Assembly: GCA_025823825.1 (NCBI GenBank)
Contig: GCA_025823825.1_4720.1
Length of the DNA: 64,000 bases
Source: a phage
Direction: 5' to 3' (one strand)
In this document: positions 2,535 through 16,717 of the stretch, piece after piece
Position numbering within the stretch: position 1 is the stretch's first letter
Layout of the letters: the number at the start of each line of letters is the position of its first letter
Program-made: the position numbers and the translations under genes
The notes under the pieces: model-generated
Told to the model about the DNA's origin: nothing
The model's database searches: none
Seen by the model: only the letters and a program-made list of their open reading frames with translations

Positions 2535-2816
2535 CTTTTAAATTCCTACTTAACAATAAAGTTCATATACGGCGTATGTATCCGTAGAATAATGGGTTCT
2601 GGTAAGATCTTACATTAAAATGACGGCATAAAAAGTACCCCCTTACCCACATGGGTAAGGAGGTTCGTCCATCACGACGAAAGGACGTTATGTGACGCGG
2701 TGTCCATAACGGCCCTGGTAGCAGGCATTAAAGATAACAAAAAGGATGTAAGTTGAGCTAAACCACCTAAATACGGTAACGATTACTTCCGTACACAATA
2801 TAACGCAACATCTTTT

Positions 2817-3626
2817 TTACCAATGATTAAAGCTGCCCGCTTTAACGACGTCACAGCGCAGATGGTTACGTAACTGATCCAGGAAGACAACCGGACTGTC
2901 ACCAGACAACATAGCCAGCGCGTGTTGGCCACCGGAACGAACAACAAGCTCATCAACCATTGGTGCTGTAATCGGGAGATCATACGCATCCATGATTGCC
3001 TTGGCTTCCTGTTCTACGTCTTTCTGGAACCCTTCCATCGTCGGAGAGTCATATTTGGTTGCAAACTCGATCCCAGGCAAGTTAACGTAATCGTAAGTCA
3101 TGACACGGGTCATAACACGACGGCGCTCACGTTGCCAGATCTGAGGATCGGTTAACGCGCGAACCGAAAAACACACGTTCACCAACGGCGTTTCAAAATC
3201 TTTACGTAATGGATCACCGTACGGCCCGCAAGGAATAACATCCCCCATCACCATCACGACAGGACGACCACGACGATCGCGTCCCGCTTCTTCTAACCAA
3301 ATCTTAGAAAAGCAATGGCTTACCTTCGTTTCTTCGATTCGTAACGCTCGCTGCAAAAAGCTGGTTGCATCCTGACCGATCTCTGGTTTAGGGTGACCGT
3401 ATTCACCTTTCAACGAACGATTGCGTGCGTTTGTTTGCAGTAAGCTGTTTTCCAGAAACAGCGGTTTCGAACGCTCAAGTTCGTAATATTCTTCGGTATT
3501 GTTAAAACAGTTAAATCCGCCGATAACACAGGTGTAGGCACCGTCAGCATTAGGACGGATAATACCTTTCTTATTCACACCAAGATAACTGGTGCAAACA
3601 AGATTACTAATTGGTGGTTGCATCAT
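2817..3626 (-). CDS. hypothetical protein (269 aa)
   Basis: Long ORF; no confident motif. Confidence 0.55.
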   Translation of the reverse strand: MMQPPISNLVCTSYLGVNKKGIIRPNADGAYTCVIGGFNCFNNTEEYYELERSKPLFLENSLLQTNARNRSLKGEYGHPKPEIGQDATSFLQRALRIEETKVSHCFSKIWLEEAGRDRRGRPVVMVMGDVIPCGPYGDPLRKDFETPLVNVCFSVRALTDPQIWQRERRRVMTRVMTYDYVNLPGIEFATKYDSPTMEGFQKDVEQEAKAIMDAYDLPITAPMVDELVVRSGGQHALAMLSGDSPVVFLDQLRNHLRCDVVKAGSFNHW

Positions 3627-3704: not shown

Positions 3705-4436
3705 TCACCATTCATACGATCCGGCGCACTGATGCCCCAATAGTACCAACGCGTCGTCTTTGGCAGCTAGGTATTTCTCTAACGTTATCCGTGAAACAGA
3801 CACATTAGAGAAATCCATCACACCTAAGCGATGATCGTAATGGTTAATTTGCATCCGGTAATAACCTTTCTTTACCACCAGAAACTCACCTTGACGCAAC
3901 CATAGCGGAACGTTATCAACCTCCGCATGGATATAAAACACCGGACATTCTGTCGTAACGGAGTTTTCCTTCCCATCACTATCTGTAATTTTCCCTTTGG
4001 GAACAGCCGCGATAAAACATTCTCCGATACGCTCGGTTTGGTACCCGTTCGGATAGCGCGGATCGTGAAATAACCAATGCTCATCGCTAATATCAACATC
4101 GGATAATAACGTACGATGTGGACGTAAGGCGATATCAAACGGAACACGATAGATAACGTACCCGCCTAACCAATGGGCTAAGTGACCGCCAGAAAAATAC
4201 TGCTTGATTGCGGTACTGTAGCCGTATATACAACCCATCAAACTGCTGGACACACAGATCCTTGGAAACGACCCGTCTTCCATACGCAAGGTACGTTGAG
4301 GGATACGTGGCATCATCGTTTTCAGTTCGGTATCGGTGCTAATATGCAATAAACCGAAAGGAAGCGTTTTGCTCGGCACCCACGCACAACGTTCCATAAT
4401 CGCTCTTGGGACAATAGTCTCGATAGACGATAACAT
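3705..4436 (-). CDS. hypothetical protein (243 aa)
   Basis: Long ORF in array; function unknown. Confidence 0.5.
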   Translation of the reverse strand: MLSSIETIVPRAIMERCAWVPSKTLPFGLLHISTDTELKTMMPRIPQRTLRMEDGSFPRICVSSSLMGCIYGYSTAIKQYFSGGHLAHWLGGYVIYRVPFDIALRPHRTLLSDVDISDEHWLFHDPRYPNGYQTERIGECFIAAVPKGKITDSDGKENSVTTECPVFYIHAEVDNVPLWLRQGEFLVVKKGYYRMQINHYDHRLGVMDFSNVSVSRITLEKYLAAKDDALVLLGHQCAGSYEW

Positions 4437-4437
4437 A

Positions 4438-5148
4438 TCACCCCCTCAGAATCGCTTCTGTTTCGCTGATCGTATCCGCAGGATAAACCAAACTACTATC
4501 GATTGCGTTATTCACGTAACCACCCATTAAGTTGGTGATGGTGTTTGTACCACTATCGATAATGTTTCGTAATCCGATATCGATGGCTTTTAACGTGCTG
4601 CGTTCCTCATCCGAAAGCAAACGCCATGCTCGACGACGATCGTTGGGGTCACGTGTGGTGATAGAAGCCAGAACAGAATAGATGCTGCTATCCGCATTCA
4701 GTTTAACGCCTGCCAATTTCGCTGACGTGTAGAGCAGCTGATATTTTTCTTTCTCAGTGTACCACCATGGCACTTTACCGAGCGTATAGATCTCGTTATA
4801 CATCAGCCATGGGAAAGAGTTTCGCATCACGACATCGGTTGACACCAACACCGTGTCACCGGGAAGAAACACAAACTCATAAAACGGCTGGCCATCCATG
4901 GTAATTTCACGGATGTCAGACGGGTCGATATGGAGCTGGGTCAATGCGTGGCTGACACCATACTGACCATCGGGAAGAATAATCGGGCAGCACGCACAAA
5001 CCCGGTTCTCACTCCCGATGATAGATAAACCCAATCCCTCGTAACGGACGGGTGTCAGAATCGAACACCCGCCACGAGTAACAACAGATTTATCTTCTTG
5101 TATGTCCCAGTCCGCAAGCACCGCAGCACCGTTGCGGACAAGCGCCAT
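4438..5148 (-). CDS. hypothetical protein (236 aa)
   Basis: Long ORF, immediately adjacent to neighbours (operon-like spacing). Confidence 0.5.
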   Translation of the reverse strand: MALVRNGAAVLADWDIQEDKSVVTRGGCSILTPVRYEGLGLSIIGSENRVCACCPIILPDGQYGVSHALTQLHIDPSDIREITMDGQPFYEFVFLPGDTVLVSTDVVMRNSFPWLMYNEIYTLGKVPWWYTEKEKYQLLYTSAKLAGVKLNADSSIYSVLASITTRDPNDRRRAWRLLSDEERSTLKAIDIGLRNIIDSGTNTITNLMGGYVNNAIDSSLVYPADTISETEAILRG

Positions 5149-6672
5149 TTACACCTCGCTAATCTGGATAACGTAAAGCTGCTGGGCCACGTAATCGGTG
5201 GTCAGATGCATCGTTGCGATGGTCGCTGCTTCGAACACCGTGAGTTCAGGACGTTCACGCATAATCAAATCGATCTCATCGATGAGACGGTTAACGCCTT
5301 GAGCGTCTTCGTGATGCATGGTTTTCACGTACAGCGTACGGAAATACTGCTGGAAGTTAGCTACGTCGGTATCGGTAAGGGCAGCAACTTCACCACGTAC
5401 GATTTCCATAACCTTCTTACGGGTATCTTCATCAAGGTCCACTGTAATCAGATCGGCGAACACACCCTGCAGCGCCAGCGCGTATGCACGTAAGCGGTTT
5501 GCGGCTTGCTGGCTGGCTTTCATGTTGATGTAGTTACGGTAATGCTGCATGAAGCCTGCACCGTTAGCCAGCAGCTCATCTTTACTGATGAGTTCACGCT
5601 CTAACAGGACAGCTGCGGTTAGTGCTTCCGGTGAACCGCCTTCTTGCAGATAACCCATGTAGACATCTGCGTTAACGAAAATCGTCATCGTTGACGCATC
5701 TTCAGCACGTTGAATCTGTGAAGCTGACGGTGCAGAAAGAATCAGTTCACCACGCTCCATACGCAGAATACGATCACGACCGACGCGTGCCATCCCGTTG
5801 ATCGCCGCAGCGCGAGCTTGTTGCATTTTAGCGCGGTAGTTTTCAAGCATCATGTCGTTGCCGTCCTGGATATCTTCCAGCAGGTTAACGGCCCACATAT
5901 AGCAGAGGAACGCGGGAGTTGCCGCAGCGCGGGAACCGTGGAACGCAACGTTATCGCTATCCGGATATGTAATCAGATAAGCGGTGTTGTTCGAAGAAGG
6001 AGCGGAGCCACGGAAGAAATAGTTGTAGATGTCTTCCAGTGCCTGATCGCTCATCCCTTCCGTTGCTTGCTGTACAAAACGATCCAGGTTTTCATTACCG
6101 GTATACAGCAACGTACGCAGCTTGTCACCAGTGATAAACGCAAGCTTTTCGGTTGGGGTGAAATCGTTATTAATCGAAATCAAGCCGTTGAGATCATAAT
6201 CGCTAACTAATGCCTGATACTCTTCGGAGTTATAAAACTCAGGATAGTAACTCAGACTTACTGTCGGGATCAGTTTCGGTGCCAGGATGATCGAATCGAT
6301 ACGTTTTTCCAGTTCCGGGTACAGCGCACGGCATTTCGGCAGGATGGTATTACGCGCCAACTCTTTGGCATACACCACTTTTTCCACCACGTCTTGAACT
6401 GCAGTCTGTAAAACTTCATCGTGGATATAAACCTCGCGTTCGCTGGCAGGTGCTACAGCGCCATCTTCGGTTTCATCAAGTGTTTCAGCAACAACCATAC
6501 GTTCAGCACTAAGCTGTACCAACGCATCCGCGTCTTCCGGTGGCTGGTTCCAATGCATGGTTTCACAAACCGCGGCTAACGGGGTACCTGGAATCGCAGC
6601 GACGATTTGGTTACGTTTGATAAACCCTTCGACAATAGGCTCAACAGCATAAACGGTTTTATTGGTGATCAT
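5149..6672 (-). CDS. hypothetical protein (507 aa)
   Basis: Long uninterrupted ORF; no catalytic motif recognised. Confidence 0.6.
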   Translation of the reverse strand: MITNKTVYAVEPIVEGFIKRNQIVAAIPGTPLAAVCETMHWNQPPEDADALVQLSAERMVVAETLDETEDGAVAPASEREVYIHDEVLQTAVQDVVEKVVYAKELARNTILPKCRALYPELEKRIDSIILAPKLIPTVSLSYYPEFYNSEEYQALVSDYDLNGLISINNDFTPTEKLAFITGDKLRTLLYTGNENLDRFVQQATEGMSDQALEDIYNYFFRGSAPSSNNTAYLITYPDSDNVAFHGSRAAATPAFLCYMWAVNLLEDIQDGNDMMLENYRAKMQQARAAAINGMARVGRDRILRMERGELILSAPSASQIQRAEDASTMTIFVNADVYMGYLQEGGSPEALTAAVLLERELISKDELLANGAGFMQHYRNYINMKASQQAANRLRAYALALQGVFADLITVDLDEDTRKKVMEIVRGEVAALTDTDVANFQQYFRTLYVKTMHHEDAQGVNRLIDEIDLIMRERPELTVFEAATIATMHLTTDYVAQQLYVIQISEV

Positions 6673-6981: not shown

Positions 6982-7007
6982 GAGCAGGGGCATGAAGCCC
7001 CCTGCTC
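6982..7007 (-). terminator. intrinsic terminator-like hairpin after the beta-like gene
   Basis: GAGCAGGGGGC-atgaa-GCCCCCTGCTC stem-loop directly 3' of the stop at 7008, followed on the minus strand by a T-rich stretch (tcgtttatttcg). Confidence 0.6.
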
Positions 7008-8135
7008 TTATTTGGCGTCGTTAAAATAAATATCAACAGCTCGTTCCGTTGCGTAGAGGAGACCAAGATTCACAGTCCCAACCACTTCCGGTGAACCGAT
7101 GATACGGTTAGCGATACTGGTGCCACTGAAGATAGCATCAAGGGTGTGCCCGTCTTCGGTTTTGTTCACACCATGACCCACGGAAGAGACAACGGATTTC
7201 GCTTGTGCTGCGAAGGTACCTTTATCACCCATCCCCGCACCAAGGTCGTAACGCATGAAAATACGGATAGCGATCTGGTTCTCGCCTAACGGATTACCGT
7301 CTATTCTCACGTTACTGTTATTGATACGCCCCGTTGTTGCTTCGTTGAGTTTCAGTTCCTTAACGCGTTTAGCTCGCGCTTTATCCGCTTCACCGACGAG
7401 CGCCGCCATGGTTTCACTCATATCCTCAATCTGAGCACGGTACAATACATCGATCTGTACAACTTCACCATGAACGTCAGCACGTGGGTTATACTGACTC
7501 ATACGACGTAATGCTTCAACGGCTTCCTGGCTCTCATCGCTCAGATCAGTTGCAATCGGTTCTTCCAGTGTTGCAAGAATCGTTCGAGGTTCAACATGAT
7601 CACCGATTTTCACGAGACCACGAATGTTGAGATGAGCGTCAACAATGAGTGTACGACTTTTAATCGATGGTGTTACGAGGCGATCAGCAAGATTGTCGAA
7701 GATATACGAGCTATCCTCGTGCGTCTCTGGAATATCCAGAATACCAACAAGAGACAGAACACCTGCACGCCAAACAACCTGACCTGGGTTCCACCAATCG
7801 CGTTTAAAATAAAGACGATGGAAAACCACCACATCCTGATCCTTAACGCGATCCCCGACTTTATAATCGGTAATGAGATCGTGAGGATAATACTTACCTG
7901 GTCCTTTCCCGATTATCGTACCGAGCTGGAAAACCTCTTCCCCTAACTCTGGATCGTCGTATTGTATCGTAAGCGCAGTTTTGGTGACCTTCTTAACAAC
8001 ACCATCGCCTTGGGCAGCTGCTGCGAAGAGTTTACCAACACGATGCGCGATGACAGTCTCGCCACCAGTACGCCACGGTTGTACATCGTAACCTTCAGCA
8101 GCAATCATGCGGTTGTGCTGTATACCTATAAATAC
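7008..8135 (-). CDS. multisubunit RNA polymerase beta-like subunit, 3' exon
   Basis: Translation aligns by eye to bacterial beta: VFIGIQHNRMIAAEGYDV ~ VVTDEIHYLSAIEEGNYV; ETHEDSSYIF ~ GYNFEDSILV; IRIFMRYDLGAGMGDKGTFAAQAKSVVSSV ~ [30 protein letters not shown]. Frame is open upstream of the annotated TTG back to a stop at about 8153-8155; joins to the exon ending at 9833. Confidence 0.75.
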   Translation of the reverse strand, partial: VFIGIQHNRMIAAEGYDVQPWRTGGETVIAHRVGKLFAAAAQGDGVVKKVTKTALTIQYDDPELGEEVFQLGTIIGKGPGKYYPHDLITDYKVGDRVKDQDVVVFHRLYFKRDWWNPGQVVWRAGVLSLVGILDIPETHEDSSYIFDNLADRLVTPSIKSRTLIVDAHLNIRGLVKIGDHVEPRTILATLEEPIATDLSDESQEAVEALRRMSQYNPRADVHGEVVQIDVLYRAQIEDMSETMAALVGEADKARAKRVKELKLNEATTGRINNSNVRIDGNPLGENQIAIRIFMRYDLGAGMGDKGTFAAQAKSVVSSVGHGVNKTEDGHTLDAIFSGTSIANRIIGSPEVVGTVNLGLLYATERAVDIYFNDAK

Positions 8136-8481
8136 CAATCTCTTGGGCGAATTTAGTTCTTATTCAACATAATCATACTATTACCAGAATAAGACTGAGA
8201 TTAGATTGTTCAGATAAGGTCGTTAATCTTATCCCGGAGGCGACGATAGGCACATCACCTCCCGCTTACGTTCTCACGCAAGAGCAGACTATATCACATC
8301 TCGTCTTAGGCTTGTTTTCACAAGTCAAACGGTGCTTCTTCAGCACCTCAACGAGAGTTCACTTCTTCCCAGCGCATCCAGCGCCATTCTCTTATCCAAG
8401 GAGAATGCCTCACTCGAGGGGTACCGGGGGATGAATCCCTTAGTCGTTGAACCGTCACCCTAGAACGTTTCACAACGATCC

Positions 8482-9693
8482 TTAGGCGATTGGCTGCGGA
8501 TTACCCTTAGCCTGCGGACCACGAACTTTTAACGTGGTCAACTCTTCATTTTTAAAGCCCGCATCACGAGTTAATCGTCTCGCTTCTTGCACGTCTAACG
8601 TTTCCGTTTCCGCTTTGGCTGAAGGCAGCATTGGGCGTCCCCGCAATTCAATGAATCTCGTCCATACGTCACCGTATAAACGGACCCGCTCTTTGTAAAC
8701 AGAATAGTAAATATATCGCTTTCCATCAGGGAATTTCTTCATTCCTTCCGACTTCAAACGGTAATCTAACAATGTAGGACTGATCCCCATTTCTTTTGCG
8801 CATTCTACACCGGAGAGATACAACTTCGGTACGTCGTCTTCAGGAATAACCACAACGGCACGTTTGTTGTTTGTTTTCTCCAGTTCGATAATGCTATCAT
8901 CCACTTCACGCCATGGTGTTTGATCGGTTGCCCATTTCGCTTGGAGGAAACCATTAACGACCGGCTGATCTGGATCGTTAACATATTCCGATGCGGTGGG
9001 AAGCTTAACACCGATATGGTTGGCGAAATCCGTTAACGAATTAAAAATCTGGATTTCTTTCGTTAACGTGGATCTGGTAATAACACCTTTACTGGAGTCT
9101 TCAGATAGCGTAGCAATCTCGTATTCCGTCGGGATGTACCATGGGTCATCGCCGCGATATTTACGGTATTGCAACCTTTCGGTAAACGGACGTTCTTCAC
9201 CACGGTAAACACGATGATGAATGAAATCAATATTCACACCAAGTTTACGTGCTGCTTCCGTCATAGACGCATAATCCGTAACTTCTCCGGTATCGATATT
9301 GCGAACCTGAATGGGTTTGCCGTAAGCTTCGATGGCTTTTCGACGCATGGTCATGATGCGTGCGTGTTCGTTGTTCTCTTTTGCCGTCACCCATTCGAGA
9401 TTATCATTCTCCGTGTTACCGTCTGGATCAAGGTAATTATTAAGTTTATTACCGTCCTTATGGTTCACGTGGAGTTCGTATGCATCATCGATGTTACGAT
9501 ATGTCAACATCAATAAACGATGCATCGAACGATATGTGACAGTACCGTCGTGGCTACGAAACGCGTATCGCCAATACCCACCCATTATAACTGGCTTATA
9601 AATAAAACCAGTTTCTTTGTTACGCAATGTCCCATCAATGGCAATTTCAAGAAACGGGAATTCCTCTACTGTTTTGTACGTCAATTTTCTCAT
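8482..9693 (-). CDS. intron-encoded HNH homing endonuclease (403 aa)
   Basis: HNH_3-type motif HVNHKDGNKLNN…NLEWVTAKENNEHA; NUMOD-like DNA-binding motif TDYASMTEAARKLGVN; lies wholly inside the intron with its own promoter-like motif at 9739-9747. Confidence 0.8.
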   Translation of the reverse strand: MRKLTYKTVEEFPFLEIAIDGTLRNKETGFIYKPVIMGGYWRYAFRSHDGTVTYRSMHRLLMLTYRNIDDAYELHVNHKDGNKLNNYLDPDGNTENDNLEWVTAKENNEHARIMTMRRKAIEAYGKPIQVRNIDTGEVTDYASMTEAARKLGVNIDFIHHRVYRGEERPFTERLQYRKYRGDDPWYIPTEYEIATLSEDSSKGVITRSTLTKEIQIFNSLTDFANHIGVKLPTASEYVNDPDQPVVNGFLQAKWATDQTPWREVDDSIIELEKTNNKRAVVVIPEDDVPKLYLSGVECAKEMGISPTLLDYRLKSEGMKKFPDGKRYIYYSVYKERVRLYGDVWTRFIELRGRPMLPSAKAETETLDVQEARRLTRDAGFKNEELTTLKVRGPQAKGNPQPIA

Positions 9694-9738
9694 TGGCTAC
9701 ATTCCTTAAATCCTGCAGTGAACTTATCCTGCACTTTC

Positions 9739-9747
9739 GTAATATAG
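9739..9747 (-). promoter_or_regulatory. promoter-like motif CTATATTAC (minus strand) inside intron 1, upstream of the HNH ORF
   Basis: Same 9-mer and orientation as four other sites (1722, 28099, 41221, 53755), each upstream of a minus-strand gene start. Confidence 0.45.
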
Positions 9748-9832
9748 CCTTAATTCTGTTTACATTGAAGCCTTAATCATCTCTATCAGCAGCAGGTACT
9801 GCAAGTGCTGATGTACTCATTATTGACGAGCT

Positions 9833-12800
9833 ACCGTCCGTTTTCTCGTCGTAGGGTTTCGTTTCACCGTATACAGACACAATGTTTGCGTTAGGTGCGA
9901 GGTAAGCAGAAATACCTACATCCCCACTATCCTTCGTACCTTCGGATACAACACCAATGTCCGACTTGTCGTATTCACGATCGCGTGCGCGTCGAAGCGA
10001 TGTCTTTGAACGACCCCCGATACCGGTCATCGTTGCTTCTTCACCCTGCTTGATATCCAACATCGGGTTGGTTTCATCGATCACGATGGACGCGCTGTCG
10101 TCGAGAATTTGGTTCCAGACGCTTACCGGACTGATTGAGATTTTCTGACGATTTCCTTGACTGCTGTTCTCATTCTGGCGAATAGCGCCAACCAGGTCCT
10201 TATACACCAATTCAGCGAACTTATCGTACGTTTTAAAACGTTGGTAGTTCACATCGTTCGTGTTAGGTGCCCAGTCATCCAGAAGCAGTTCAACAGCACG
10301 CAGTAGCAACATGGCGAAATCGGTAGGTTCTCCCATGTTCTGTAATAGCGTACGGCTTACCGGATCAACGAAAAGACGCTCCATGAGTTCAAGTTCGCGT
10401 AAATGGCGAACCTTAAGTCCAGCACCATCGACAACGTTAAAATAGATATCTCGATTGTCGAAAGCACCGCGAGCGTAACCGATGTAGTTACGGTACTCGT
10501 TAAACCCACCCAACAACAACGTCGTCATGCGATCGTCTTTACTGAAGATCAAACTTTCGTCGTCAAAGCTCACCGCGAATTCATCTGGCGCTAACCCCAT
10601 ACGAGAACCACGAGGTACCGTACGATAGTTTGCTTTAAGATGTTCTAATAACGGGGTAAGTCCACCCAGATAACTTAGAACAACGCCAACCGGAATACGT
10701 ACACCCATGAATTCAAGATCGGCAGCTTCGATCGGCATCTTAGCCGCATTGATACCGAAGAAATCAGGGAACGTCCCTACAGGTGTTGGTGTTTGTCCTG
10801 ACTGACAGATATAGAGCTGATTGCGTTCATCGATCGCTAGGAATTCACCCGATGTGTTACGTGCGAACGTCAGGAGTCCTTCGGCTAACTGTTCGTTGAA
10901 CCGATCTTCCCCAATGAACTCCGGTAGCGTTTTTATATCGAGACGTATATCCCAATCAGCAAATTGGATTTGGGTATAATTGCGCGCAAGCACTGCAAAG
11001 TAGTACGGGACTTTGACAGCCGGATCAAAGACGTTACCACGTTTTAACGTGGTTAAGGGTGAGGACTTATCGTAATACATCGCTGTAAGTTGGCGTGTTA
11101 ACCAACGACCGGCGTTATTAACGACACGCTCTGAACGTTTAACAAACACCTTACCATAGGCGGTACTCAACGCAACTTCGGATGATGATACCTTTCTAAT
11201 AGGTTTATCAACACGTTGTTTACGCATCCGGTACTTGATGCCGTTAACGACATAAATGCCATCCTTACGAACCTTCGGCAACATCACCGGGAACGTGGTT
11301 GGGACACCGCCTACAGGAGCCAGTTTAATCGTGATGACTTGATAATCCCCCATCACGTCAACAACATCTTCAACTTTATATCCCGTAACAGGGTAACCAG
11401 CTTGCTGTACCGCAACAACGGCAGCTGCGATGTCCTTTTGCATTACATGTTCAACGTAATGTTTATCCCACACCGCAAGCGTCGATTTACATAGGCTCTT
11501 GTCGACGATAACGTCCGCTTCCGGCATAACCTTTGCGGGAGCTAATTTTGCGGCTTTTGGTTTAACTTCAACATACTCGGCAAGCGTTAATCCAGAACCG
11601 TCAGGTGCTTCGATTTCATGAATAGCGTCGGCATTACGCATCGCTGCTTTATATTGGACACCACTTAACTGACCCGCATCCGCCAGATCGCTCGCGCGCA
11701 CCAACACCGCATCCGATAACGACTGAATATATTCACCGTGCGTTTTTGGTAACGTTGCCGCGTCAAAGACATCAACCTTTTCTTCTTCGGTATCGTCGGT
11801 AACGACTTCGAAGAGATCGTCGGTAATGTCCTGATCTTCATCGGGCTGGAAATCCGGCTGTACTTCTACCCCGGGTACTTCACGGACATCTTCGAACGAG
11901 CGTTCTACAATGGCGTTCCACGCATCAGCGTCATCGTCTTCATCCGAACCACCGACCAACTCCGCTTCTAACTCGTCGGGATCAAGAACGGTAGCGAGAT
12001 CTTCACCGTTAGGAAGCATGACATCGCGATCATCGTACTCCGCATCCGGGCTGTCCGCAAGAATATCTCGCTCTTGACGAAGAACCTGTTCCTCTTCTTG
12101 TTTCTGTTCTTCTTCATTCGCGCTCTGCGACCACAGACGTGTTACCGCCATCATCCAACGACGCTGGAAGGTTTCAAGTGTCGTTTTATCGAGTTCTTCC
12201 CCTTCCTTTACAAGTCCGGTACGCCATTCTTCCAGCAGGCCAAGATTCAGCGTAAAGAAGTACACACCGTCTGTAAATACAACGTTAAGCTTATCCAGCG
12301 TGGCTCTGTCTAACGAAGCCATTGTGCTGTTCTCACGATCGGTTCCCAACCAGCGGAAGAAGTCAAAGAACGACAGCTCCTCCGGCGTAGCGAAATTCAT
12401 GAGGTTGTTACGGGTCGGTGCCTGTTGCGTGGTACGCATCAACGAAATCTTCGGCAATGTTGACGGTATACGGAACAACAGAAAGTGTTGACGATCGTTT
12501 TGTTGTGCGATTTCGTTGGCTTTCGACCAAATCGTTTTACGTACGTTGAACCATTCATCATACCAACGGGTGAGCGTTGGACGATAGATGTACATGTGGT
12601 TAAGATGTGCGTAGTTAGCAACGATCTGAGCGTTGATGTTTTTCTCCACCGCGCTTAGATCGGTAACCAAACGAAAACGACGATGCGATGCACGATAATC
12701 CAATTTCGCTCGTGGGAGTTGGAATCGTTGATCGCGTCGAGGCGCACCCTGTTTGGTTGCGAGATCATCAGCAAACGAAATCCATAGTTGAGCACTTTCT

Positions 12801-12982
12801 TTACTCAGCATGTATTCGTTTTCTGGAGGACCTATCAATGATGGATCCGTTGCGGTGTAATGATAGACAGCATAACGCGGCAGCTGCAATAGCTGCACTA
12901 AACGTAATCTCGGCGACAATAGCTCTTGGTAGCGTCGGACACCAAACTGTCGGTAGTAATCAAGGTATTTAAGTTTTGCCAT
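9833..12982 (-). CDS. multisubunit RNA polymerase beta-like subunit, 5' exon
   Basis: ATG at 12982 with GGAG ribosome-binding site. C-terminal region matches beta motifs: SEGTKDSGDVGISAYLAPNANIVSVYGETKPYDEKTDG ~ [36 protein letters not shown]. The last 20 codons of the annotated 1069-aa ORF (SSSIMSTSALAVPAADRDD) are intron read-through. Confidence 0.75.
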
Positions 12983-12985
12983 GGG

Positions 12986-13165
12986 TTAGGCTCCACGAGG
13001 TCCCGTTAAGTTGCGTAATAGGAACGCAACCGTATCGTAACCAATATCGATGTTGAATTTATTTTTACCACTTACCCAGAAAGCTCGCTTCTTGTGCGAG
13101 TTGGTAATTTCGTCAATGGCTTCCATGGAATAAAGAACGTTAACCGAGACCGTATCACCATCGAA
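12986..13165 (-). CDS. multisubunit RNA polymerase beta'-like N-terminal subunit, 3' exon (57 codons + stop)
   Basis: In-frame translation FDGDTVSVNVLYSMEAIDE… matches beta' catalytic region [22 protein letters not shown]; ends at TAA 12986-12988, three nt before the beta-like gene ATG. Missed by the ORF track because it has no start codon. Confidence 0.7.
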   Translation of the reverse strand, partial: FDGDTVSVNVLYSMEAIDEITNSHKKRAFWVSGKNKFNIDIGYDTVAFLLRNLTGPRGA

Positions 13166-15220
13166 CCTTGTCTTCGCCTCAGTTCGCTACGCTGAGACCG
13201 CCTGCATGGATACGTACATCACAGGCTGCTTGCACTTTCATGCAAGAGGAGACTATATCAAACCGTCAGCTTCACCTTCTCGATCGTATCGAGAATGCGG
13301 CGCTGAAGAATACTTCAGCAGCACCTGTTACGGTAACCTACACTTCGAAGACGCTTGTCCTCTACAGGGTGGTAAATCCCTTAGTCGTTGAACCTGCGTT
13401 GTTTCACATTTTTGCAAACAAGAATGCCGTATTGCTACGCAACAACCAGGCTGCTGATTGCCCATTGTTTCGCACCTTAGCACCGCTTACGCGGCTTTTC
13501 TTTCAGCCTAAGCCTCTTACGGAGGTAGTGCATCTCAACTTTTGTTTCTGCCTTTCGGCACCTCATGGGTCGTTGAGCTTTAGGGGTTCCCAGCAATTCG
13601 TAGGTTTTTCAAGCACTCCCTTTCGGGAATACCGGACCTTTACCCTTTAGCTAATTTATTTAAGTATCTGAAATCCCACTTATCTTTACGTCGTTTATCG
13701 CACTTAATGTCAGGATGATTAACACGATGTCTGATGGTCGTCGCTGACAGCTGACTGAGATTCTCAGCAGATCGTGCGCCAAGAACAACGAGTTTTGTGT
13801 CGTCTGGACGCGTAACTTCTACTGCCCGATAATGCTTACGTAACACATCACGCCAATATTCACGACGTTCTGGTTCAGCATACTCAAGCATGTAACCGTT
13901 AACATCTACTAAACCGTAGCTTTCGTTTAATCGAGAGGTAGCGGCTGGTTTACTAATACCGATTGCTTTAGCCGCATCGACCACGGTTTTATACGGGGTC
14001 TCATTACCGTCTCTATCTACAACCATAATGAAATCTGGACGTGAATCGAGTAGCTGCTGTCTGCGTTCGACGGCTTGTTGATGAAGTACCATGTTAACGT
14101 GTTCGAACCCGTAACCTTCTGGGCCACGCCATCCTGGATTGTTGTTCGCTCGATAAAGTATCGTCGATGATTTCACTCCAGTCTGACGCGATGCCTCGTT
14201 TGCGCTATGAACAACCGTGGTAGAGCCGTCAGGATGATATATCCGTATCTGGTTCATTATACCGGAACCAATGAAGTTACCGTCGGCTGATTTAATGTCC
14301 GGCCATGGTTGCGGGTCATCTTTGAATTTAACCACCCAGCGGTTGTTAAACAGCTTAACTTTTCGAACATGTTTGCCTAATGTCGTATCCGTAACACCTG
14401 CGATCACTGATGCTTGTGTGATGCTCAGGTACTCAGTAACGGTATCGTTCCAAGTATCCCAAAGCAGAACCGGTTTATTGTCGTCGCGTAAACCATGTTC
14501 GATAGCATGTAGGACATTACGACTTCTGGTCGCCCATTCCAGGTTATCGAGAGAATAGTTCCACTTATCAGCATCAAGATGATTAACGTCCAGACTATCG
14601 ACATTTGCTGGATATTCCCGCCACGCCAACATCAAGCAACGGTGTAATCCCTTATTACCAGCCTTCTGGCGACAATCATGTTTCAAGCAGACAGTAACGT
14701 AACGGTTCGTTTCGAAACGTGGATGATAGATACTCCCGTCCTTTCTGTCTCTGATTTCACCTGCTTCGTTTATTACGTATCTCGTCATTCCTGGAATAAC
14801 ACGATAACCGGGGTACTTAGCGATCTCATAAGCAGGCTCGAAACGATAGGACAAATTATCAACATCCCAATTAGATTCGTTACCGTCAACAAACATCGCT
14901 TTGACGTACTTCTGTGTTTCAATATCAACCAGGATGTTTTTGTGTGCGATACAAATCAATGCTGGGATATTGAATTCGCGACCGACTAAATTAACTGTGT
15001 CGCCGTTTCTCGGTATCTCGACGTGGGTATCGCGATACCGTAAGTTTCCATAGCCGTCTATTTCAATCCAGCTCAGAAACGGAATAGATATAAATTCTTT
15101 TTCAGATACACGCCATTTAAACATATAAACCTCTGTATAACCTTACTATCACACTAAGAGGTTTATCTGTAAATTCTTACAAAACGGCGTAAATTACTAA
15201 AAAGGTCGATCACCGCCTAA
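13166..15220 (-). mobile_element. group I intron (about 2.05 kb) inside the beta'-like RNAP gene, carrying an HNH homing endonuclease ORF
   Basis: On the minus strand: Q-like AATCAGCAGC (about 13456-13465), R-like GUUCAACGACUAAGGGAUU (about 13377-13396), S-like GAUAUAGUCUCC (about 13250-13261), then the 3' splice site after a G. 5' exon ends in U (…gcc ggt). Spliced junction gives …YLAG|FDGD…, rebuilding a YNADFDGD-like catalytic motif. Confidence 0.75.
13640..15124 (-). CDS. intron-encoded HNH homing endonuclease (494 aa)
   Basis: HNH_3-type motif VNHLDADKWNYSLDNLEWATRSRNVLHA; NUMOD-like motif SITQASVIAGVTDTTLGKHV; own ribosome-binding site (agagg) before ATG at 15124. Confidence 0.8.
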   Translation of the reverse strand: MFKWRVSEKEFISIPFLSWIEIDGYGNLRYRDTHVEIPRNGDTVNLVGREFNIPALICIAHKNILVDIETQKYVKAMFVDGNESNWDVDNLSYRFEPAYEIAKYPGYRVIPGMTRYVINEAGEIRDRKDGSIYHPRFETNRYVTVCLKHDCRQKAGNKGLHRCLMLAWREYPANVDSLDVNHLDADKWNYSLDNLEWATRSRNVLHAIEHGLRDDNKPVLLWDTWNDTVTEYLSITQASVIAGVTDTTLGKHVRKVKLFNNRWVVKFKDDPQPWPDIKSADGNFIGSGIMNQIRIYHPDGSTTVVHSANEASRQTGVKSSTILYRANNNPGWRGPEGYGFEHVNMVLHQQAVERRQQLLDSRPDFIMVVDRDGNETPYKTVVDAAKAIGISKPAATSRLNESYGLVDVNGYMLEYAEPERREYWRDVLRKHYRAVEVTRPDDTKLVVLGARSAENLSQLSATTIRHRVNHPDIKCDKRRKDKWDFRYLNKLAKG

Positions 15221-16717
15221 ACCGGCGAGGTATGGGGCTGGGACAATAGTCGTTTCTACGAATGAAGCATTAGGTAACCAGTCGGGGTATTCCCATGCGA
15301 TAAATCGTTCATCCGTTATTGGTTCCCAGTTACTATCCAGTTCGGTTTTCGGTTTTGCGGCGACGGTTGTACGTGCGTAACAGGTTAACGGGATAACGGA
15401 TTGCATACCTGATACCGGATAACGTGTTACCATTGCAGCCAGGTTATTCCAGTACTTATATCCGGCAATATAGATAAGCTCGGTGTAAGTAATGGGGTGA
15501 ACATCCGCGCCAGGTTTATTCAACATCTCCGGGGGTAATTCACTCATGCCACGGAATAACCGAAACGAATCGTTGTTCACATAGACGAGGCAAAGATATC
15601 GTCCATTGACCATGATAGGCTCGTTACGCACGCCAGGATCGCTTAAGGTGTTCAGTAAACGTTCTATTCCGTCCCATGTTGTAAAGTCATCGATGGTGTC
15701 TGGATCAAGCGTGACGCGCTCACGTTCCATCGTTTCGGTATCAATAAGTTCAACTTCTGTAACATCACGGACAAATATTTCCTGCAAAATACCGGTACGT
15801 AACGCATGTTGCGTTACTGGGAGAGCGGCTTTACTCATCTGGTATAACCCTAACTGAACCGCGGTACAGGAAGGCTGGTTAGGCGACCCTAATACCTCCG
15901 TTGTGGGGTTAATTGCCGAAATAACGTTACGGGTTGAGTTCCAAACACGACGTGAGCCGAACTTACCTTGGAAGATCCCTTTCTTACCTTGGAACATATC
16001 CAACAACAAAGCGTAGATATCGTTAAATGTTCTCTGTAAGCTCCAGCGCTGGCCGTCGTAAACGGGATCAGAATAATCTTTTAATCCATCAGGGACGGTG
16101 TTAGAAATTGCAAGGAAACGACGATACAACTCTGTGATTTCTTGCTCGCTTTCATACCCGCCTTCTTTTACTTCTATTTCACGTAAGCCTGCAGGTAAAA
16201 CCAGTAAGTGACGGGTCATCGCTTTGAACATGTTCTCTTCGACGACTTTAATACGTAGCTCTCGTTGAGCTGAACCCGTTGAAACGAACTTAATATCAGC
16301 GACGTGTTGTGCGAAGAACCCGTATCCTGTTTGTCCTGTTAATGCATCAGACGCAACGAAGTCGCGTTGTTCTGGATCCCAACGCGCGTACGCCTTTCCT
16401 GACATGATATCACCATAGAGGTGTTTTAGTCGAATGAGGCGATCGTAAATGACAGGATGCAGGATTTCAACTTTGCATTCAATCACCGCAAATCGACGGT
16501 CTCGGTCTTCACTGCCCGCACTACCAAAGATGGTGTAAGAATAGAAACCGTCATCATGGAAATTACCGGTGCTTGGGTCACGAATGCTCATGCTCGTGAT
16601 CTTGGGGAGAAAACGTAACTGCTGTTTATCGAGGTGTAAAATACTAATGTTAAACGGCTCTCTGACTTTAGCCATGGAGACACTCCTCTTTACCACCACC
16701 GGCTGCGGCGGTATCAT
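15221..16717 (-). CDS. multisubunit RNA polymerase beta'-like N-terminal subunit, 5' exon
   Basis: beta' homology: GKKGIFQGKFGSRRVWNSTRNVISAINP ~ [35 protein letters not shown] ~ LPPDLRP; YRRFLAISN ~ YRRVINRNN. Likely true start is the ATG of MAKVREPF (about 16674) preceded by AGAGGAG. The annotated stop at 15197 lies in the intron. Confidence 0.75.

Follow-up and report, generated by a model that had tools for sequence, protein, structure and literature searches.

I-HmuI and I-BasI are nicking HNH endonucleases encoded in group IA2 introns of the DNA polymerase genes of Bacillus phages (SPO1, SP82, Bastille). A closer relative of the element considered here is gp210 of Pseudomonas phage PhiPA3, encoded in an intron of the homologue of phiKZ gp178. 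This enzyme nicks phiKZ gp178 as well as the PhiPA3 site when it lacks the intron, D1072 is the position to which escapers of phiKZ map, PhiPA3 gains an advantage from gp210 in co-infection, and the H82R mutant of gp210 is inactive, its nicking being abolished (PMC11620839; Birkholz et al. 2024, Science). We analysed a stretch of phage DNA of 64,000 nucleotides (nt) (NCBI GenBank assembly GCA_025823825.1, contig GCA_025823825.1_4720.1; below, the window) and found, with high confidence, a mobile IA-type group I intron at positions 9775..8148 of the minus strand, interrupting the virion RNA polymerase beta gene. The window shares about 96% identity with Escherichia phage Goslar, and the phage is a Goslar-like chimallivirus, that is, a Goslar-like E. 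coli jumbo phage. The element is of the same kind as that of PhiPA3, at the same site and with an orthologous enzyme, in a different phage lineage; the intron site itself has already been published for PhiPA3 (PMC11620839). No report of this intron in Goslar-like phages was found in a literature search.

The likeness to the PhiPA3 intron extends to the host gene (the phiKZ gp178 homologue), the insertion point (immediately after GAU GAU in both), the order of elements (exon, short leader, HNH open reading frame (ORF), ribozyme core, exon) and the position of a GUC guide just before a GNRA-capped P2. The two differ in the host phage, here a Goslar-like coliphage, and their nucleotides can be aligned in the core motifs only. 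The window intron is longer (1628 nt versus 1352 nt), with larger P5, P7.2, P8 and P9 peripheries; its ORF has 403 amino acids (aa) and overlaps the core by about 215 nt (P1' to P6), compared with 330 aa and about 44 nt in PhiPA3; and the first residue of exon 2 is Pro, whereas it is Met in PhiPA3. Nicking and competition were tested experimentally in PhiPA3 only. With introns of the I-HmuI/I-BasI type the window intron shares the combination of HNH and NUMOD modules (Pfam I-HmuI_NUMOD-like, NUMOD1), the location in a catalytic motif of an essential polymerase gene, and an IA-type core with P7.1/P7.2. Unlike in these introns, the host gene encodes an RNA polymerase rather than a DNA polymerase, and there is no detectable nucleotide similarity. 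In the window intron the ORF is predicted to lie in the P1 loop.

On the minus strand, region 7000-13000 has a single match in the phage collection, Goslar (96.2% identity; two pieces that together cover 72% of the query). In this nucleus-forming jumbo phage, the gene order at the locus is the same as in phiKZ gp178-gp181. Goslar gp207 ("RNA polymerase beta subunit", 1448 aa) is a single gene without interruption. The interrupted gene of the window encodes the virion-packaged RNA polymerase beta subunit, homologous to phiKZ gp178, PhiPA3 gp211/209 and Goslar gp207, and is divided as follows.

9776..12982, minus strand: exon 1 of the beta-like gene, 1069 codons, ending ...AADRDD, colinear with Goslar gp207 codons 1-1069
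9776, minus strand: T9776, last base of exon 1, the U of the predicted 5' splice site
8148..9775, minus strand: predicted group I intron, 1628 nt, starting UAAGGC (an in-frame stop for exon 1) and ending ...AAAUUCG, terminal G at 8148
7008..8147, minus strand: exon 2 of the beta-like gene, 379 codons plus stop, beginning CCC AAG AGA (PKR), colinear with Goslar gp207 codons 1070-1448

As Goslar gp207 is intron-less, it fixes the insertion exactly, at 9775..8148. The window aligns with gp207 up to 9790 and again from 8137; between the aligned pieces there are 1652 nt in the window and 24 nt in Goslar, and thus the net insertion is 1628 nt. The Goslar sequence at the junction is ...EKTDGISSVMSTSALAVPAVDRDD-G-KRLVFVGIQHNRM, and in the window ...EKTDGSSSIMSTSALAVPAADRDD is followed by a stop and, later, by ...PKRLVFIGIQHNRM. 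A border with T9776 as the last exon base and C8147 as the first base of exon 2 is the only one that preserves the length together with a final U of the exon and a final G of the intron. Excision of the intron yields a coding sequence of 4347 nt, equal to that of gp207, and a predicted product of 1448 aa, 99% identical to Goslar gp207 (15 differences), with the junction reading DRDD/PKRLVF (here and below the slash marks the insertion point). The predicted spliced transcript reads ...GAUGAU/CCCAAGAG, and the predicted complementary DNA (cDNA) ...GCTGATAGAGATGAT/CCCAAGAGATTGG; the intron-less site of Goslar gp207 is GTAGACCGTGACGAT/GGAAAACGTCTGG.

The same DD/ site is occupied in five orthologues, of which four score above 50 bits (51-83 bits) with the Rfam group I model and one, from the Vibrio phage, scores below.

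L005, Serratia phage 2050HW: same-site intron, Rfam 82.6 bits
L004, PhiPA3: same-site intron, Rfam 67.8 bits
L002, Logan metagenomic contig (Goslar-like): same-site intron, Rfam 64.3 bits
L008, IMG/VR Goslar-like genome: same-site intron, Rfam 51.4 bits
L006, Vibrio phage C-ZP2022: same-site intron, Rfam 40.2 bits

In the window and in all five, the exon ends with U and the intron with G. Pro after DRDD is the family consensus: the metagenomic homologues P0002-P0005 have DRDDPKR (DRDDPKRVN), and exon 2 begins with PKR in L002, L008 and Serratia phage 2050HW. Goslar has Gly at the junction position. Gly was rejected as the junction residue of the window, as no U...G border pair yields it and Pro is the family consensus.

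The initial annotation, made from the letters of the window, had proposed a group I intron with an HNH homing endonuclease in the beta-like gene. This core claim is supported and, for the interval 9775..8148, we consider it highly probable on the sequence comparisons. The borders given there, 9832..8136, are displaced by 57 nt on the 5' side and by 12 nt on the 3' side. What it had taken for 20 unrelated codons at the end of exon 1 is genuine exon, colinear with Goslar gp207 (SSSIMSTSALAVPAADRDD in the window, ISSVMSTSALAVPAVDRDD in Goslar) and ending in the catalytic ...DRDD. The frame of exon 2 was correctly described as open upstream of the annotated TTG, and indeed the colinearity with gp207 extends through KRL upstream of this codon; exon 2 really begins with PKR at 8147.

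The beta fragments of the host gene had no match in Pfam or in single-sequence PDB searches. A profile made from eight family members matched the Thermus beta subunits 1hqm_C (E 8e-12) and 1iw7_C (E 1e-11). It aligns STSALxAPAADRDDPKRV with FSLNTNLIPFLEHDDANRAL of T. aquaticus, and the FED and GDK motifs follow in order; thus in the profile alignment the bacterial beta motifs EHDDANR, FED and GDK...KG occur in order in the host gene, DRDDPKR corresponding to EHDDANR. Because of this correspondence the site is assigned to EHDD/ANR. The profile search places it at FLEHDD/ANRALMG of T. aquaticus beta, and the E. coli alignment from which the earlier border was derived (VVTDEIHYLSAIEEGNYV) is a misalignment. 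The intron splits a catalytic motif, with two conserved Asp before it and PKR after it, equivalent to bacterial EHDD/ANR. The second Asp at the site is E. coli RpoB D675 (PMC11620839).

In the window, L008 and Serratia phage 2050HW, the intron opens with UAA in the frame of exon 1, and ribosomes would halt exactly at the 5' splice site. The exon 1 frame runs into the intron for 15 codons in PhiPA3 and for 6 codons in L002.

A local E-value scan with the Rfam model Intron_gpI (RF00028) found a group I core at full model length at 8707..8265 of the minus strand (49.9 bits, compared with a cut-off of 50; E 3.8e-11). The following elements were assigned.

8212..8679, minus strand: predicted ribozyme core P2-P9.2, with P2, P3, P4, P5 with extension, P6/6a/6b, P7, P7.1, P7.2a-c, P8/8a, P9, P9.1 and P9.2
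8502-8493, minus strand: Q element, within the core
8452-8434, minus strand: R element, within the core
8295-8285, minus strand: S element, within the core
8148..8211, minus strand: variable tail at the 3' end, containing an additional hairpin (UCUUAUUC...GAAUAAGA) and closing with the terminal G

The Q, R and S strings are thus present in the right order, and Q overlaps the 3' end of the ORF, both as described in the initial annotation. The P7.1/P7.2 hairpins, typical of subgroup IA cores, place the intron in the IA type.

The P2-P9.2 structure was written by hand on the window sequence, the P3/P7 pseudoknot included, because RNAalifold cannot represent this pseudoknot and paired P3 wrongly, with R. 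We left P3 without a GAG/CUC extension, which clashes with P8 and which L002 does not retain. For covariation, only the pair window/L002 was counted, as a five-way MAFFT alignment misaligned the 3' halves of the cores; the controls were obtained by sliding the partners by 1-3 columns. Over 104 pairs, compensatory changes were observed in 24, compared with 2-5 in the slid controls. In all, 88.6% of cells pair versus about 40% in the controls; since the tested structure came from one member of the compared pair, the window, the percentage paired is inflated, but the compensatory count is not. Helices P2, P3, P4, P5, P8 and P8a are 100% paired in both sequences.

The 3' tail is partly deleted in L008 and absent in L002, PhiPA3 and 2050HW; the final ...UUCG/ is kept. 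The P9.2 hairpin (8212-8234 in the window) has a UAACGA loop that is conserved in all six same-site introns (window, L002, L004, L005, L006, L008), the stems being different; this loop may form a tertiary contact. A Q-like heptamer UCCGCAG occurs twice, 19 nt apart (about 8513-8519 and 8494-8500; GGUCCGCAGGCUAAGGGUAAUCCGCAGCC), and the upstream copy could compete for the 5' strand of P4.

The guide was found about 1.1 kb downstream of the 5' splice site, the P1 pairing scheme having been derived by inspection.

9753..9782, minus strand: predicted 5' strand of a long-range P1, formed by exon AGAUGAU plus U9775, GCUU (9771-9768) and UGUAAACAGAAU (9764-9753)
8678..8705, minus strand: predicted 3' strand of P1 with the internal guide, AUUCUGUUUACA-AA-GAGC-G-GGUC(C)GUUU

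Here AGAUGAU/U (9782-9775) pairs with GGUC(C)GUUU (8686-8678), with G8685 as the wobble partner of U9776; GCUU pairs with GAGC (8691-8688); and UGUAAACAGAAU forms a perfect helix of 12 base pairs (bp) with AUUCUGUUUACA (8705-8694). In the longest-perfect-run test, a complementary run of 12 bp was equalled in one of 2000 shuffles. The helix is 13 bp in L008 through an A-to-U change in the leader. The sequence RGUC immediately 5' of P2 (of P3 in Vibrio) is present in all five same-site orthologues examined and can pair with the invariant exon GAU; the Vibrio guide forms a 6-bp helix GUCGUC/GACGAU (here the slash separates the strands). L002, 2050HW and PhiPA3 have shorter counterparts of the long-range helix, none of them significant by itself. 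Duplex folding with shuffling does not discriminate in AU-rich sequence, and the longest-perfect-run test is informative for the Goslar-like introns only. P1 is modelled as an extended, long-range helix that carries the endonuclease ORF in its loop. A guide in the 82-nt leader or elsewhere was also sought by a brute-force scan of the intron, which gave chance-level matches inside the ORF only (Val-Val codons pairing with Asp-Asp codons); the leader guide was abandoned because the orthologues show the conserved GUC just before P2. From this anatomy, self-splicing of the intron is very probable.

The interval contains one long ORF, as the initial annotation had noted for the gap in the beta-like gene.

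8482..9693, minus strand: intron ORF, putative homing endonuclease of 403 aa with HNH and NUMOD modules (I-HmuI-like), orthologue of PhiPA3 gp210

The ORF is intact and matches Pfam NUMOD1 (34.9 bits, cut-off 22.8), with weaker matches to I-TevI_DNA-bd, I-HmuI_NUMOD-like and HNH_3. Its top match among 50,697 phage records is PhiPA3 gp210 (tblastn E 4e-49, 37% identity, 87% of the ORF); BLASTP gives 39% identity over 297 aligned residues. The motifs VNHKDG...NLEWVT...NNEH of the window align with VNHKNG...NLEWVT...NIEH of gp210, and the predicted catalytic H78 aligns with gp210 H82. The end of gp210 corresponds to residue 343 of the window protein, and the last 60-70 or so codons of the ORF read through the ribozyme, from P1' through P2, P3, P4 and P5 into P6 (about 215 nt). 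Compared with L008, codons 1-330 have a nonsynonymous divergence (pN) of 0.15 and a synonymous divergence (pS) of 0.76 (pN/pS about 0.2), which indicates purifying selection on the protein. In codons 331-403 both are suppressed (pS 0.065, pN 0.051), as expected if it is the RNA fold that is conserved there.

A candidate promoter of the intron ORF was found in the leader.

9739..9746, minus strand: TATATTAC (context GGCTATATTAC), 46 nt upstream of the endonuclease ATG
1722, 27266, 28099, 40262, 41221, 53755 and 61473, minus strand: other copies of TATATTAC

The window contains eight exact copies of this motif, all on the minus strand, compared with 2.25 expected. Most of them share a flank, and they are often found as GGC- or GAC-TATATTAC-C upstream of ORFs. 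The copy in the leader is kept in L008 and, with one mismatch, in L002, and it may be a phage promoter. A literature search for the motif gave nothing relevant.

The distribution of differences from Goslar is uneven. In the spliced gene the background is about 2-3 mismatches per 100 nt. In 100-nt bins covering nt 2800-3299 there are 13, 6, 14, 30 and 18 mismatches, and all 18 mismatches of the last bin are within 30 nt past the junction (nt 3207). The junction has 14 mismatches in 30 nt, nearly all of them synonymous. Overall, divergence from Goslar is raised about 10-fold in a tract of about 400 nt upstream and 30 nt downstream of the junction. The upstream flank of L008, which has the intron, contains 2 mismatches per 100 nt to the window and 29 per 100 to Goslar. 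Such a tract is as expected from exon co-conversion during homing from a diverged donor.

The presence of introns is mosaic. Below, the intron at 9775..8148 is intron 2, and intron 1 is the one in the neighbouring polymerase gene. Of three genomes about 96% identical in this gene, Goslar carries intron 1 alone, L008 intron 2 alone and the window both. Intron 2 of the window (8148-9775) and that of L008 (3923-5505) are 65-85% identical in the ORF and 87-99% in the core, with flanking exons about 96% identical; synonymous sites of the ORF are saturated in this comparison. As the ORF and the ribozyme differ so much in identity, their histories differ, and the ORF and core seem to have been exchanged independently.

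The proposed course of events is as follows. In the pre-mRNA, the exon end AGAUGAU would pair with a guide situated about 1.1 kb downstream and immediately ahead of P2, GGUC(C)GUUU, and the 12-bp helix would clamp the two ends of the ORF-containing loop. Guanosine would attack after U9776, the terminal G8148 would dock, and the exons would be ligated to DRDD-PKRLVF, the outcome being a 1448-aa beta subunit colinear with Goslar gp207. The intron ORF would encode an HNH/NUMOD nicking endonuclease, the gp210 orthologue, which by analogy with gp210 would, in co-infected cells, nick the allele lacking the intron close to the point of insertion. In the course of repair, the intron and flanking exon would be copied into the recipient (homing), and the endonuclease may also handicap intron-less competitors such as Goslar. 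No mechanism beyond the known kind is required. That the endonuclease nicks the Goslar allele and drives homing or competition is suggested by homology and the population pattern, and we hold it with less confidence than splicing.

One possibility is that the intron splices and its endonuclease is no longer active in homing, the ORF being domesticated or decaying and the intron vertically inherited baggage. The HNH_3 match under the Pfam cut-off would fit, and so would the C-terminal 60 aa, which are a read-through into the ribozyme with a near-neutral ratio of nonsynonymous to synonymous substitutions (dN/dS 0.78). However, the catalytic His and the NUMOD modules are conserved, pN/pS is about 0.2 over codons 1-330, and the co-conversion-like tract and the variable presence of the intron among near-identical genomes point the other way; we thus regard an inactive endonuclease as unlikely.

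Several observations weigh against a functional mobile intron, the origin of the tested structure, given above, among them. Splicing is deduced from sequence, and the PhiPA3 intron itself is termed "putative" in the paper describing it, without reverse transcription PCR (PMC11620839). The Rfam score is 0.1 bits under the curated cut-off of 50, and for this reason the default gathering scan missed intron 2 and reported only intron 1. There is a U-U mismatch in P6b. The exon part of P1 is short, requires several G-U pairs as well as a bulged C, and is in competition with P2 for its last two pairs; P10 has at most about 2 bp. In L002, 2050HW and Vibrio, the results of the duplex-energy and shuffle tests for P1 were weak or fell short of significance. 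The HNH_3 match has 17.2 bits with a cut-off of 24.8.

The just sub-threshold Rfam score, together with splicing being putative even for PhiPA3, would also be compatible with a split gene without splicing, in which the ribozyme has decayed, the HNH gene is effectively free-standing and beta consists of two assembling polypeptides. Indeed, chimallivirus beta and beta-prime are encoded in several pieces, and jumbo-phage RNA polymerases are naturally split. However, PKR of exon 2 offers no start codon, the earliest one being an internal TTG at 8138 with implausible spacing to a ribosome-binding site, and the break would fall within the catalytic loop. Moreover, the core is 87-99% identical between the window and L008, whereas the ORF is 65-85% identical, and the 24 compensatory pairs in the core helices relative to L002 imply selection on the RNA fold. 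A split gene is therefore very improbable.

Finally, we give virtually no weight to the borders 9832..8136, with exon 1 ending ...EKTDG, exon 2 starting VFIGIQ and the cDNA reading ...ACGGACGGT/GTATTTATAGG: they obey the rule of exon U and intron G, as the initial annotation stated, and keep the reading frame, but Goslar gp207 is colinear across the 19 codons SSSIMSTSALAVPAADRDD and PKRL, the insertion relative to Goslar is 1628 nt and not 1697, every orthologue breaks at DD/, and 23 residues would be removed, including the catalytic DRDD aligned to bacterial EHDD.

The preferred reading therefore remains a mobile, self-splicing intron 2 in the beta gene. The other intron of the window has the following position.

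13166..15208, minus strand: predicted intron 1, 2043 nt, with exons at 15209-16717 and 12986-13165

Its borders are fixed by the intron-less allele of L008. Intron 1 is outside the beta gene; it splits the neighbouring beta-prime-like gene in the catalytic Asp-triad motif, GGD/FDGDTVSV. The spliced protein of 562 aa matches the beta-prime subunit of the AR9 non-virion RNA polymerase (nvRNAP; 7S00/7S01), and Goslar annotates this gene (gp205) as "beta subunit", ending at the intron. Intron 1 and its Goslar counterpart (gp206, non-coding RNA Intron_gpI) have the same build as intron 2, with leader, HNH ORF and IA-type core, and likewise reside in a catalytic motif of the virion RNA polymerase.

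The R element is identical at 19 of 19 positions in the two introns, as stated earlier (the copy in intron 1 is at 13393-13375); these 19 nt comprise the R segment, which is near-universal, and the first strand of P7.1. The introns share two short core blocks only, one of 32 nt (87.5%) and one of 52 nt (77%); between their HNH proteins, identity is 32% over 139 aa. Judging by these alignments, they are not recent copies of each other, and the suggestion that related introns have spread within this genome is unsupported as a recent event. Indeed, the intron 2 endonuclease is nearer to PhiPA3 gp210 (37-39% identity, 87% of the ORF by tblastn). Introns 1 and 2 are gained and lost independently (Goslar has the first without the second, L008 the second without the first).

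A second insertion site, about 5 codons downstream (after DDPKR, V or L, and one further residue), is occupied by an intron with a gp210-like HNH ORF in Klebsiella phage phiKp_32 (L007, about 3780-5200) and in the metagenomic contig L003 (5330-6530). The latter has at least three introns in the beta gene, one of them with a DUF723 ORF. This stretch of the beta gene is an intron hot spot.

A broader reading, tentative and on the whole rather doubtful, is that Goslar-like coliphages form a natural, tractable population in which two polymerase introns are actively homing as competition weapons, with the ORF placement relaxed by the phage nucleus. Transcription inside the protein-shelled nucleus and translation outside it would shield ribozyme folding from ribosomes. 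Such shielding would have permitted extension of the ORF by about 215 nt into the core (from P1' to P6), where coupled transcription-translation would normally penalise the overlap.

For annotation, the beta subunit would be one protein of 1448 aa rather than fragments of 1069 aa and 376 aa, and the neighbouring "beta" gene is really beta-prime-like, itself interrupted inside the DFDGD motif. The known range of the PhiPA3 "weaponised intron" site now includes the Goslar lineage, which serves as the E. coli model of nucleus-forming phages. For work on homing and competition in E. coli, suitable material is at hand in the alleles with and without the intron, which are nearly identical and show a co-conversion tract.

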